IMG/VR virus record: IMGVR_UViG_2563366960_000006
Direction: 5' to 3' (one strand)
DNA from: a virus
Lineage: Duplodnaviria; Heunggongvirae; Uroviricota; Caudoviricetes
DNA: 22,262 nucleotides
Shown: piece after piece, positions 6,233 to 10,507 of the stretch
Layout of the letters: every line of letters begins with the position of its first letter
Numbering within the stretch: position 1 is the first letter of the stretch
The notes under the pieces: generated by a model
Database searches by the model: none
Told to the model about the DNA's origin: nothing
The model's input: the letters and a program-made list of their open reading frames with translations, nothing else
Program-made: the position numbers and the translations under genes

Positions 6233-6261
6233 GCCAAAAATAAAGGCCGATTATGCGGCCT
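6233..6261 (-). terminator. Intrinsic terminator on the minus strand after the 207-aa gene
   Basis: Plus 6244-6261 AGGCCG-ATTATG-CGGCCT; on the minus strand the hairpin is followed by TTTATTTTTGG. The gene's stop codon (6251-6253) lies in the loop. Confidence 0.4.
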
Positions 6262-6874
6262 CGGAAGGAAGTCCAATCATCTTATTCAAATCTTCTACCC
6301 GTAAAGCAGGAAGTGCTGCACTTGCTTTATCTGCTTCTTTTGGTAGCAACTCTTTGCTTTCAGGCCAAACTTCAATAAGTCGCTTAACTGTTGTGACTGA
6401 GTTCAAAGCAGCCCATACATTTGATTCGATATCCTTTTTCTTGGCTTCAAGTTTTTGTTGCAATGCGCAGATTTCATCAAACCTTTTTGTTATTTCGTGT
6501 TCTGCGCTAAACATGCATTTATATTGGGTCGGAGTAGGGAGCAATATATCTTCGCCGTTGCCGTCTTTCCCATATGAAAGCCATCCAACCCTTCTGCCAG
6601 ATACAGTCAGATAAATTGATGCAGAACGAACATCGCATGAGCAAAATGAACATCCCAGTTTTTCAAGTTCTTCACTTATAGCTACTAACTTGGATGATAA
6701 CTGATCCACTTCCTCAGTTTTCTTTTTACCGCCAAACGCAATAACTCTGGCGTTAAGTGCAAGCTGGTTCTTTAACTTTGTTACTTCTTTAAGTTCAGTG
6801 AAAACCCCAGACTTAATTAAAGCGTTACGAGCGATTTCCTCTTTCATTCTCGTAGTTAAGCGGATTGATGACAT
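6251..6874 (-). CDS. Hypothetical protein (207 aa from ATG at 6874), first gene after N
   Basis: Track ORF extends to 6934, but ATG at 6874 has a good SD (GAGAGGAA) and avoids overlap with N. Predicted coiled-coil segments and a Cys cluster (GCSFCSCD). Sits where lambda carries sieB/ral. Confidence 0.6.
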   Translation of the reverse strand: MSSIRLTTRMKEEIARNALIKSGVFTELKEVTKLKNQLALNARVIAFGGKKKTEEVDQLSSKLVAISEELEKLGCSFCSCDVRSASIYLTVSGRRVGWLSYGKDGNGEDILLPTPTQYKCMFSAEHEITKRFDEICALQQKLEAKKKDIESNVWAALNSVTTVKRLIEVWPESKELLPKEADKASAALPALRVEDLNKMIGLPSEAA

Positions 6875-6885
6875 ATTAATTCCTC

Positions 6886-7185
6886 TCAAATAAGTTGTTT
6901 GCTGCCTAATTTTATTTTCTGGCGACCAACACAAGTCACACCCATTTCACTCCGTGGTTTCCGGTAGTAAATACGGTTCTGTTTACGCTCGACTTCTTCT
7001 GCCTTCTTGCAGCGAAGGCTTCCGAGTGATGCTGCTTTATCTGCTCTGACGCAACCAGAGAGCTTTAGCGCAATTTTTCGCGCCAGTCGCTGCTCTTGCA
7101 TTGCCTGTTCACGTTGAGCCTGTCTGCGTGCTCTGCGGCGATTTCTGGCGTTATCGTCAGCCAGATATGTAATGACTACTGTCAT
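6886..7185 (-). CDS. N: N-like transcription antitermination protein (99 aa from ATG at 7185)
   Basis: First gene downstream of pL/nutL; arginine-rich N-terminus (NARNRRRARRQAQREQ); C-terminus ...RIYYRKPRSEMGVTCVGRQKIKLGSKQLI resembles the lambda N C-terminus (...TWYSKPGERGITCSGRQKIKGKSIPLI). N-terminal ARM differs from lambda N. Confidence 0.8.
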   Translation of the reverse strand: MTVVITYLADDNARNRRRARRQAQREQAMQEQRLARKIALKLSGCVRADKAASLGSLRCKKAEEVERKQNRIYYRKPRSEMGVTCVGRQKIKLGSKQLI

Positions 7186-7291
7186 GTTGACCTCCGATGA
7201 TTGACTTTGGCGGTGACGCGCCGGGTGCTTATCTTCCGGTTGCCGTCGTGCAGCTGCACTTCGCGTCACCCCAAAGACAACTACTCTTTGG

Positions 7292-7379: not shown

Positions 7380-7442
7380 AGTATCACCGCTAGTGGTATG
7401 TGTGTCAACACCGCCAGAGATAATTTATCACCGCAGATGGTT
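7380..7442 (-). promoter_or_regulatory. pL promoter with operators OL1-OL2-OL3
   Basis: 17-mers TATCACCGCTAGTGGTA (7382-7398, OL1), CAACACCGCCAGAGATA (7406-7422, OL2), TATCACCGCAGATGGTT (7426-7442, OL3); minus-strand -35 TTGACA (7403-7408) and -10 GATACT (7380-7385) with 17-nt spacing. OL2 and OL3 match lambda; OL1 differs by one base. Confidence 0.85.
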
Positions 7443-7599
7443 ATCTGTATGTTTTTTATATGGATTTATTTTTTTGCAGGGGTGCATTGTTTGGTAGGTG
7501 AGGGATCAGAATTGCACTGTTTAGCAAGTTGTATCTATCAATTTTTCAATAAATACAATTGGTTATGTTGTTATTAGGTGTGGGGATCGAGAGGCAAAG

Positions 7600-8310
7600 A
7601 AAACCCGGCACTGAGGCCGGGTTGTTATTGTGCACAGAAAACCCCCAGCTAGGCTGGGGGTTCCGGAAAGCTTTCAGCTTTGAGCCAGTTATTAAAACCC
7701 CTTTTGATTTGTTAAAACACCTTGCGGTCTGGCAACTGCAAGTGTCAAACAAGAAATCAAAAGGGGGTCCCAATGGGGAACGAAAAGAGCTTAGCGCACA
7801 CCCGATGGAACTGTAAATATCACATAGTATTTGCGCCAAAATACCGAAGACAGGTGTTCTACAGAGAGAAGCGTAGAGCAATAGGCTGTATTTTGAGAAA
7901 GCTGTGTGAGTGGAAAAGTGTACGGATTCTGGAAGCTGAATGCTGTGCAGATCATATCCATATGCTTGTGGAGATCCCGCCCAAAATGAGCGTATCAGGC
8001 TTTATGGGATATCTGAAAGGGAAAAGCAGTCTGATGCCTTACGAGCAGTTTGGTGATTTGAAATTCAAATACAGGAACAGGGAGTTCTGGTGCAGAGGGT
8101 ATTACGTCGATACGGTGGGTAAGAACACGGCGAAGATACAGGATTACATAAAGCACCAGCTTGAAGAGGATAAAATGGGAGAGCAGTTATCGATTCCCTA
8201 TCCGGGCAGCCCGTTTACGGGCCGTAAGTAACGAAGTTGGATGCAAATGTCAGATCGTGTGCGCCTGTTAGGGCGCGGCTGGTAAGAGAGCCTTATAGGC
8301 GCATTTGAAA
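7600..8310 (+). mobile_element. IS200-like insertion sequence (IS200/IS605 family); boundaries approximate
   Basis: Contains tnpA (7773-8231). Upstream are a terminator-like hairpin (7602-7623, then T-rich), a 10-bp stem-loop (7640-7662), and a long-range pairing between 7698-7710 and 7754-7766 that would sequester the tnpA SD (AAGGGGG), all as described for the IS200 left end. Exact termini not determined. Confidence 0.75.
7773..8231 (+). CDS. tnpA: IS200 transposase TnpA (Y1/HUH family, 152 aa)
   Basis: MGNEKSLAHTRWNCKYHIVFAPKYRRQVFYREKRRAIGCILRKLCEWKSVRILEAECCADHIHMLVEIPPKMSVSGFMGYLKGKSSL... matches IS200 TnpA (recall). ATG at 7773; the track ORF begins 51 nt earlier. Confidence 0.92.
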   Translation: MGNEKSLAHTRWNCKYHIVFAPKYRRQVFYREKRRAIGCILRKLCEWKSVRILEAECCADHIHMLVEIPPKMSVSGFMGYLKGKSSLMPYEQFGDLKFKYRNREFWCRGYYVDTVGKNTAKIQDYIKHQLEEDKMGEQLSIPYPGSPFTGRK

Positions 8311-8312
8311 AA

Positions 8313-8331
8313 CCTCCGGCTATGCCGGAGG
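8313..8331 (-). terminator. Intrinsic terminator on the minus strand after the cI-cassette operon (t-imm-like)
   Basis: Plus CCTCCGG-CTATG-CCGGAGG at 8313-8331; on the minus strand it is followed by TTTTTCAAAT, 5 nt after the 107-aa gene stop. It may alternatively belong to the IS200 right end. Confidence 0.45.
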
Positions 8332-8335
8332 ATAT

Positions 8336-8659
8336 TTATTTATGGAAAAACACTTCAAGTATTTTTGGGATTGCTGGTATGAGTTGTGAGGATACGACCG
8401 CACCTACAACCCATAGAATTATCGAAGTTTTCGCGTCGCTTACGTCTGATTTGGTTGCATAATTCGAGCGCATGACAGCCAGGTCGGTTTTCATTTGCTG
8501 AACATCTTTTTCGAGTTCTTTCACTCTTTGAAGCACATCATCACCTCCGCCATTGCCGCCACCATGCCGTGAGTATGCATCATCAGTGGGATAGTGTCCA
8601 ATTGGGCGAGATATGTTTTGATTTGGACGAAGTTGAGTAACCTTGTTATCTAAACTCAT
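8336..8659 (-). CDS. Small tail-anchored membrane protein (107 aa), second gene of a cassette replacing rexAB
   Basis: ATG at 8659. Gly-rich N-terminal region (GGGNGGGDD), predicted coiled coil (VLQRVKELEKDVQQMKTDLAVMRSNYATKSDVSDAK), C-terminal hydrophobic helix (SIILWVVGAVVSSQLIPAIPKILEVFF). Architecture resembles XhlA-type or holin-like small membrane proteins (by recall, not searched). Start overlaps the upstream gene by 14 nt. Confidence 0.65.
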   Translation of the reverse strand: MSLDNKVTQLRPNQNISRPIGHYPTDDAYSRHGGGNGGGDDVLQRVKELEKDVQQMKTDLAVMRSNYATKSDVSDAKTSIILWVVGAVVSSQLIPAIPKILEVFFHK

Positions 8660-9083
8660 CGCGAACTGATCCTGTTATCTTCACGTCAAAAAACGAACTT
8701 TTTACATCAATTACTTCGCCTTTCTCAGGATTAACCAGTGATGCTCTAACTTCGAATATCCCAGGCTTGATAATTTTCACCCTTGGGAAGTTAATTCTCA
8801 TAGAAGTTGATACGATGGTTTCTCCATCGTTGGCTTCTGCTACCGTAAAAAACTTATGGTTGGAGTACAGTTTTGTGTCAATTGGTATCGGTATTTCTTG
8901 AGCATTGAAAACCTCAATGCCTATGGAATATTTTTTTGTAGCCTTAAGGCCGATAAAAAAAGCGCCAAATGACAGATCCACTTCATGGGAGTCTTTATCC
9001 ATTTCATAGATAAGAACTGGAGTTACGGGGTTGCCTTCATCCATCGCAATCGGAATGATATAAGAAATACGTTCTTTAATCAT
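8646..9083 (-). CDS. Hypothetical soluble protein (145 aa), first gene of a cassette replacing rexAB
   Basis: ATG at 9083 lies 7 nt after the cI stop codon (9091-9093), same strand, no intervening terminator, so it should be co-transcribed with cI. No recognisable motif; low-GC composition. Confidence 0.65.
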   Translation of the reverse strand: MIKERISYIIPIAMDEGNPVTPVLIYEMDKDSHEVDLSFGAFFIGLKATKKYSIGIEVFNAQEIPIPIDTKLYSNHKFFTVAEANDGETIVSTSMRINFPRVKIIKPGIFEVRASLVNPEKGEVIDVKSSFFDVKITGSVRDEFR

Positions 9084-9090
9084 TTACGTG

Positions 9091-9807
<717 letters not shown>

Positions 9808-9814
9808 TTAAATC

Positions 9815-9880
9815 TATCACCGCAAGGGATAAATATCTAACACCGTGCGTGTTGACTATTTTACCTCTAGCGGTGATAAT
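9815..9880. promoter_or_regulatory. OR3-OR2-OR1 operators with divergent pRM and pR promoters
   Basis: OR3 TATCACCGCAAGGGATA (9815-9831), OR2 TAACACCGTGCGTGTTG (9838-9854), OR1 TACCTCTAGCGGTGATA (9862-9878); pR -35 TTGACT (9852-9857), -10 GATAAT (9875-9880). OR3 and OR2 match lambda; OR1 differs by one base. Confidence 0.9.
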
Positions 9881-9904: not shown

Positions 9905-10105
9905 ATGGAACAACGCATAACCCTGAAAGATTATGCAATGCGCTTTGGTCAAACCAAGACGGCTAAAGATCTCGGCGTATATCAAAGCGCGATCAACAAG
10001 GCCATTCATGCAGGCCGAAATATTTTTTTAACTATAAACGCTGATGGAAGCGTTTATGCGGAAGAAATAAAGCCCTTCCCAAGCAACAAAAAAACAACTG
10101 CATAA
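9905..10105 (+). CDS. cro: Lambda Cro (66 aa)
   Basis: [66 protein letters not shown] matches lambda Cro apart from about two residues (recall). Confidence 0.95.
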
Positions 10106-10213: not shown

Positions 10214-10507
10214 ATGGTTCGTGCAAACAAACGCAACGAGGCTCTACGAATCGAGAGTGCGTTGCTTAACAAAATCGCAATGCTTGGAACTGAGAAGACT
10301 GCGGAAGCTGTGGGAGTTGATAAGTCGCAGATCAGCAGGTGGAAGAGGGACTGGATTCCAAAGTTCTCAATGCTGCTTGCTGTTCTTGAATGGGGTGTCG
10401 TTGACGACGACATGGCCCGATTGGCACGACAAGTTGCTTCGATTCTCACCAATAAAAAACGCCCGGCGGCAACCGAGCGTTCTGATCAAATACAAATGGA
10501 ATTTTAA
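10214..10507 (+). CDS. cII: Lambda CII transcriptional activator (97 aa)
   Basis: MVRANKRNEALRIESALLNKIAMLGTEKTAEAVGVDKSQISRWKRDWIPKFSMLLAVLEWGVVDDDMARLARQVASILTNKKRPAATERSDQIQMEF matches lambda CII. Confidence 0.93.
   Translation: MVRANKRNEALRIESALLNKIAMLGTEKTAEAVGVDKSQISRWKRDWIPKFSMLLAVLEWGVVDDDMARLARQVASILTNKKRPAATERSDQIQMEF

Follow-up and report, generated by a model that had tools for sequence, protein, structure and literature searches.

The 22,262-nt stretch of viral DNA analysed here (hereafter the window) harbours a lambdoid prophage whose immunity is that of lambda. We put at about 90% the probability that a full-length, sequence-intact IS200C has transposed into its immunity region 3′ of the TTATT that follows the hairpin of the phage terminator Timm, a normal target for this element, and that the cI operon still ends. 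The insertion sequence (IS) itself is ordinary and known, while its site is without earlier record: the exact junction was not found among 5,426 complete E. coli genomes, 50,697 phage records, IMG/VR and JGI metagenome contigs. With its empty sites known, the locus offers a tidy illustration of IS200 homing to terminator-shaped DNA, and this homing rule is the only part of wider interest. Feature coordinates are collected in Table 1.

Table 1. Features of the prophage immunity region and of the IS200C copy, in window coordinates
Feature	Position	Strand	Remarks
N-like gene	6886-7269	-
OL1-OL2-OL3 operators	7382-7442		pL reads leftward
pL-like promoter	7408-7380
Phage Timm, pRM/pRE operon terminator	7596-7623	-	Stem 7602-7623; U-tract TTTTCTTT on - strand
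Target pentanucleotide TTATT	7625-7629	+	Phage DNA; varies among copies
Complete IS200C, 711 bp	7630-8340	+	GTGCACAGAAAACC... to ...GGAGGATATTTATT; placed by empty sites, seven copies and dimer spacing
Left-end hairpin, bidirectional terminator against incoming transcription	7640-7664	+	IS nt 11-35; first RF01405 helix
Antisense sRNA art200 (formerly STnc490), probable	7692-7781	-	Expected position
SD-sequestering stem	7698-7767	+	Rfam alignment; MFE fold; nt 69-138 of IS200 map (PMC4513863)
tnpA, 152-aa Y1 HUH transposase	7773-8231	+	H61-I-H63 and Y125 intact
IS200C right-end hairpin	8313-8331	.	Then ATATTTATT on +, TTTTTC on -; constant in all copies
Last cassette gene, 107 aa	8336-8659	-	phrog_6324 match, function unknown
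First cassette gene, 145 aa	8646-9083	-	phrog_5893, function unknown
cI repressor	9091-9804	-	95% identity to lambda cI
OR3, OR2, OR1	9815-9878
cro	9905-10105
cII	10214-10507

Ends of the element

Two complete E. coli genomes, LR-60 (99.9% identical) and EPSSH018 (99.1%), contain the same cassette without the IS and supply the pre-insertion sequence that the original prediction had hoped to obtain from IS-free prophages. In both (loci L003 and L004) the sequence from 7270/7361 to 7629 is contiguous with that from 8336 onward, window position 7629 being joined to 8336/8341 via a single TTATT. Because these five bases are shared between the two junctions, the insert is 711 bp. Its exact placement within the 5-nt ambiguity is settled by seven independent copies in unrelated contexts (uhpT/adeD, dmlA/yeaV, a CDI locus, a CFT073 prophage, two lambdoid phages and the window), all of which are 711 bp, start with GTGCAC (GTGCACAGAAAACC) and finish with TTATT (GGAGGATATTTATT), whereas the five bases to their left vary. 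We rejected a target-site duplication as the source of the TTATT at both junctions, the left pentanucleotide being variable and the IS-terminal one constant.

The element has the properties of the IS200 group: multiple copies with identical ends occur at unrelated loci, terminal inverted repeats are lacking (the ends GTGCAC... and ...TTTATT, read off the sequence, are not inverted repeats of each other), there is no target-site duplication, the empty site is precise, and a single ORF encodes a Y1 HUH transposase of ~150 aa with no tnpB present. Nucleotide identity to other E. coli copies is 98.5-99.9% over the full 711 bp. IS200C matches were found in 3122 of 5426 E. coli genomes, and at 66 loci in other Enterobacterales.

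A complete IS200 in the immunity region had been recognized in the original prediction, on the strand opposite cI and pL and in the gap between the end of OL3 (7442) and the end of the last cassette gene (8336). All of this holds: the ORF, both ends and a full-length 5′UTR match show that the copy is not truncated, and its orientation and the two landmarks are as described. The limits did not survive the alignment to other IS200 copies that had been proposed for defining the termini. That alignment does define them exactly, at 7630-8340 rather than 7600-8310.

In the earlier layout the IS occupied 7600-8310 and lay outside the transcription unit, with a hairpin at 7600-7624 as its left-end terminator and the one at 8313-8331 as the phage operon terminator. 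The layout was plausible to the eye, since its length coincidentally also equals 711 bp, both outer hairpins are terminator-like, and BLAST matches to other copies seem to start at 7600-7605. It is refuted by the empty-site alignment, and we leave it almost no probability: the empty sites keep 7596-7629 and lack 8311-8340, and 7596-7623 is the Timm of lambda and HK244. Positions 7600-7629, taken before as IS, are thus phage DNA, namely the Timm hairpin with the TTATT target. The leftward BLAST extension to 7600-7605 was also considered as a sign of a longer IS, and rejected; each copy has its own, different terminator hairpin there.

Timm matches lambda and HK244 at 27 of 28 nt and is also present in the empty sites. 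As a conserved sequence it marks where the cI operon ends, past the last cassette gene and before OL, and the HK244 record annotates this sequence as Timm, terminator of the pRM, pRE and pLit transcripts. The hairpin is terminator-like on both strands (fold -15.2 kcal/mol), and its minus-strand shape suggests that it could terminate the same three transcripts here. The right-end hairpin is likewise terminator-like on both strands (-15.5 kcal/mol on the minus strand); the empty sites lack it and every IS200C copy examined has it, so that it is an IS end and not the phage operon terminator for which it had been taken. The element does not, then, lie between OL/pL and the cI operon terminator as first described. 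The ancestral terminator Timm is to the left of the IS, and IS200C separates the cassette operon from it. These corrected boundaries are needed for annotation or engineering of the prophage, and for comparison of immunity cassettes.

Transposase and internal RNA structures

The tnpA assignment of the original prediction is borne out by profile scores (Pfam Y1_Tnp, 1.9e-36; NCBIfam transpos_IS200 equivalog, 142 bits against a cutoff of 55) and by 100% identity of the product to the IS200C TnpA of CFT073; identity to four others is 99%. H61-I-H63 and Y125 are invariant in the TnpA alignment. Y125 is the catalytic tyrosine of IS200 TnpA, and a Y125F mutant is catalytically dead (PMC4513863).

Both RNA structures that had been noticed upstream of tnpA, a left-end terminator hairpin and a stem sequestering the Shine-Dalgarno sequence (SD), were also recovered. 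Rfam RF01405 (STnc490, the IS200 5′UTR/art200 locus) gives a full-length match at 7640-7763 with 146 bits, the gathering score being 56. The left-end hairpin folds at -22.1 kcal/mol and corresponds to the hairpin at nt 12-34 of the IS200 map (PMC4513863; see also PMC5435999). In the MFE fold 7698-7710 pairs with the SD at 7761-7768 (z = -3.7). The published positions of these two structures, nt 12-34 and nt 69-138, fit only if the element starts at 7630. The STnc490 match covers, on the sense strand, the interval in which the antisense art200 would be expected. A GadY match at 7591-7688 on the minus strand (20.7 bits, below the gathering score of 45; E = 0.79) was dismissed as a chance match on two terminator hairpins.

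IS200 is notoriously inactive in the laboratory and its transposition very rare (PMC4513863). Every sequence feature needed for activity is intact in the window copy, from which we infer that it is probably active.

Target sites

We compared left flanks in a set of elements sharing the first 34 nt of the window IS, drawn from one genome per species (66 loci) together with the E. coli and phage copies. The set has 65 distinct sites, in E. coli, Kluyvera, Citrobacter, Phytobacter, Brenneria, Serratia, Yersinia, Scandinavium, Entomohabitans and others. A hairpin fold with a T-rich tail is found in all 65 left flanks (median -17 kcal/mol). Perfect hairpins, for which we required a stem of 5 bp or more including 3 or more GC pairs, end no more than 14 nt before the junction at 59 of the 65, against 6.7% of 4000 random positions in the same loci. 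The tail, measured from the last paired G/C to the junction, is 6-9 nt long in 59 flanks (8 nt in the window), and 63 flanks end in TTNTT (TTTTT 41, TTATT 15, TTCTT 4, TTGTT 3). We regard this hairpin/T-tail pattern as solid.

At the E. coli sites the hairpin serves as terminator to a co-oriented gene lying upstream. The only phage records with IS200C are PhiR63_2 (L010, 3001-3711) and Lambda_ev058 (L011, 3001-3711), in both of which it occupies the lambda tR2 T-tract, with ren on one side and ninB on the other; the copies of PhiR63_2 and the window share 99.9% identity. In the CFT073 prophage IS200C follows a hairpin downstream of Q.

The same regularity bears on whether the window copy might be a dead remnant fixed by drift, its position an uninformative product of chance insertion in a non-essential gap. 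IS200 does transpose very rarely (PMC4513863), and only 5 nt of the gap that separates Timm from the cassette are coding; but the ORF, catalytic residues, both ends and regulatory RNA structures are intact and identical to those of multi-copy relatives, and the position obeys a rule seen at 65 of 65 sites as compared with ~7% of random positions. We therefore consider a remnant very improbable, and read the copy as an intact element at a normal target.

The window site is atypical among the 65 in one respect, that no plus-strand gene ends at Timm; the element has used the reverse face of the terminator of a minus-strand operon. The plus-strand T-run there (GTTATT) is weaker than that of most targets. 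Since this is the "wrong" face of Timm, the insertion suggests that what is read is the shape of the DNA and not the act of termination.

IS200C itself ends in such a shape: at its right end an 8-bp GC stem leads into the 9-nt tail ATATTTATT. In keeping with this, head-to-tail dimers with the junction ...TTTATT/GTGCAC... are found in at least 13 complete E. coli genomes. IS200C seems to accept its own right end as a target site, though insertion there is not the only way in which tandem dimers could form. One such dimer lies between ydcL and ydcO in E. coli YDC107 (L079); there, as in at least 12 other complete genomes, the two units meet as ...GGAGGATATTTATT/GTGCACAG... and the tnpA genes are 711 bp apart.

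We tentatively extend these observations to the proposal, for which we claim less than even odds, that elements of the IS200C type are obligate "terminator homers", whose target is a GC hairpin with a 6-9 nt T-rich tail ending in TTNTT, a mimic of their own right end. Terminator enrichment upstream of IS200/IS605 elements has been reported statistically, and was read as a limit on transposase expression (10.1101/2025.07.22.666184). A full-text literature search, with the older IS200/IS1541 papers and the main reviews outside its scope, returned no explicit prior statement of terminator targeting. If the proposal is true, the long-vague target specificity of IS200 would be defined, and the tandem dimers would be explained by insertion after the element's own right end. 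The harmlessness of the element would be explained as well, the upstream gene keeping its terminator and the IS adding terminators that face both ways. The rule would thereby account for the low-cost accumulation of IS200 in intergenic regions and prophages, and would predict the positions of further copies, phage terminators such as Timm, tR2 and the post-Q hairpin being predictable hot spots.

In lambda itself the Timm hairpin is followed by GGGTTATTCTT (L002, 1253-1262, just right of Timm), whose TTCTT tail conforms to the target consensus of IS200C; lambda proper should likewise be open to this insertion at Timm.

The last cassette gene and the cI operon

The stop codon of the last cassette gene lies directly against Timm, so that the insertion falls inside that gene's last codon, between bases 1 and 2 of the final Lys of the 107-aa protein. 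The stop codon (8336-8338) and the two remaining Lys bases (8339-8340) are now IS DNA, which provides TAA and two bases of AAA on the minus strand. The IS brings at its end the very TTATT that it displaced, so that reading frame and stop codon are rebuilt exactly and the protein is unchanged, being identical to the uninterrupted protein of LR-60.

The ancestral minus-strand arrangement is ...UAA CAA-CCCGGCC..GGCCGGG-UUUUCUUU (-15.2 kcal/mol). With the IS in place the minus-strand transcript reads ...CAU AAA UAA AUAU-CCUCCGGC-AUA-GCCGGAGG-UUUUUC, the hairpin starting 5 nt after the stop codon. A pRM/pRE transcript would enter the IS from its right end and meet the right-end hairpin and UUUUUC, where the cI operon is predicted to terminate. 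Any transcript reading through would meet the left-end bidirectional terminator and then Timm. The left-end hairpin has been described as a strong terminator in both directions, halting ~85% of the transcripts that come in (PMC5435999). Since the right-end hairpin is shaped like an intrinsic terminator on the cI strand, 5 nt past the stop, we predict little change to termination of the cI operon or to pL/OL; the operon would still end, pL/OL would still be insulated, and the insertion would probably be neutral for the phage. In the corrected transcript map the cI-cassette operon would end at a predicted terminator donated by the IS, and no longer at Timm.

A functional consequence is nonetheless conceivable, either through read-out of tnpA-strand transcripts from the right end, antisense to the cassette and cI, or through an effect of the additional 711 bp on CI-mediated OL-OR looping. 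On the plus strand the right-end hairpin is followed by an interrupted T-run, ATATTTATTT, which makes a weaker terminator, and the OL3-OR3 spacing has gone from 1661 to 2372 bp (2299 bp in lambda). Lambda OL-OR looping, however, works across a broad range of distances, and no promoter-like site was found in the IS. The tnpA promoter is moreover intrinsically weak, with expression repressed at several levels (PMC4513863; PMC5435999). We consider such an effect unlikely, and prefer the reading in which the insertion is neutral. The prophage has regained a lambda-like OL3-OR3 spacing despite its short cassette, which we treat as a coincidence.

Related elements and mechanism

The window copy has the same ends and internal structures as the E. 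coli IS200C (RefSeq "IS200/IS605-like element IS200C") and differs in location alone. Salmonella IS200 and Yersinia IS1541 share with it the left-end bidirectional terminator, the SD-sequestering stem, the art200 region and a 152-aa TnpA with Y125, but they have ~91% nucleotide identity to IS200C and differ in the first 7 nt. The published length of IS200 is 707 bp (PMC4513863), as compared with 711 bp here. A copy of IS200 in Salmonella houtenae is likewise preceded by a hairpin and TTTTCTT, and in Yersinia IS1541 has been located between pheL and pheA (PMC3082878).

Relatives of known structure include the transposases of IS608 and ISDra2 (PDB 2a6m, 2vhg and 2xm3; E 1e-15 to 1e-18). These elements resemble IS200C in their Y1 HUH enzyme, subterminal hairpins, insertion 3′ of a fixed short sequence, and lack of both terminal inverted repeats and target duplication. 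IS200C is unlike them in that it has no tnpB, and that its target is a T-rich pentanucleotide for which an adjacent hairpin is required. In the IS608/ISDra2 family the transposase acts on single strands, binds subterminal hairpins and integrates the element 3′ of a short target. By analogy with IS608, IS200C may transpose by single-strand "peel and paste": TnpA would bind the subterminal hairpins of the single-stranded top strand, cleave 5′ of GTGCAC and 3′ of TTATT, and, by homology with IS608 and ISDra2, integrate the element 3′ of its short target. Elements of the IS200C type integrate where the 6-9 nt T-rich tail (TTNTT) of a GC-rich hairpin ends; in the window this point is immediately 3′ of the TTATT following the Timm hairpin on the plus strand. 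Guide tetranucleotides of IS608 sit just before its hairpins, and pairing of the guide sequence is known for that element. In IS200C the sequence GAAAA precedes both hairpins (7636-7640 and 8308-8312), and an A-rich guide would be well matched to a cleavage site rich in T; a guide role for GAAAA is speculation by analogy with IS608.

Group IIC introns also insert just past the stem-loop of intrinsic terminators (PMC7923331). They occupy the same benign niche as IS200C but belong to an unrelated class, that of a ribozyme with a reverse transcriptase, and we offer them as an analogy only.

Prophage context

The two cassette genes take the position of rexA and rexB between cI and OL. Their proteins, of 145 and 107 aa, matched zero Pfam, NCBIfam or PADLOC families, and only PHROGs of unknown function. 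Phages HK244, HK542, HK544, mEp234 and CL707 have the same organization as the window, with cI, OL, OR and Timm conserved and a variable cassette replacing rexAB; the records of these five phages contain zero IS at Timm. The cassette of the window is different from theirs, and is the same as in the LR-60 and EPSSH018 prophages.

A mosaic breakpoint lies at ~8543, within the 107-aa gene. Only 8543-9090 is common to 14 E. coli prophages, one of them in E2348/69; these have another C-terminal half of the 107-aa protein, which in one genome is annotated as "hemolysin XhlA family".

Directly downstream of N in the pL operon is a gene of the Nmad5 family (nucleotide modification associated domain 5, 1.7e-68) at 6251-6934 on the minus strand, whose ORF overlaps the 3′ end of the N ORF.

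OL1 (7382-7398) and OR1 (9862-9878) deviate from the lambda sequence at one shared symmetric position of the operator (CCGCCAG to CCGCTAG, and CTGGCGG to CTAGCGG), and the OL1 variant is also present in the LR-60 prophage. Alongside a cI of 95% identity, these changes may be a case of matched operator drift.
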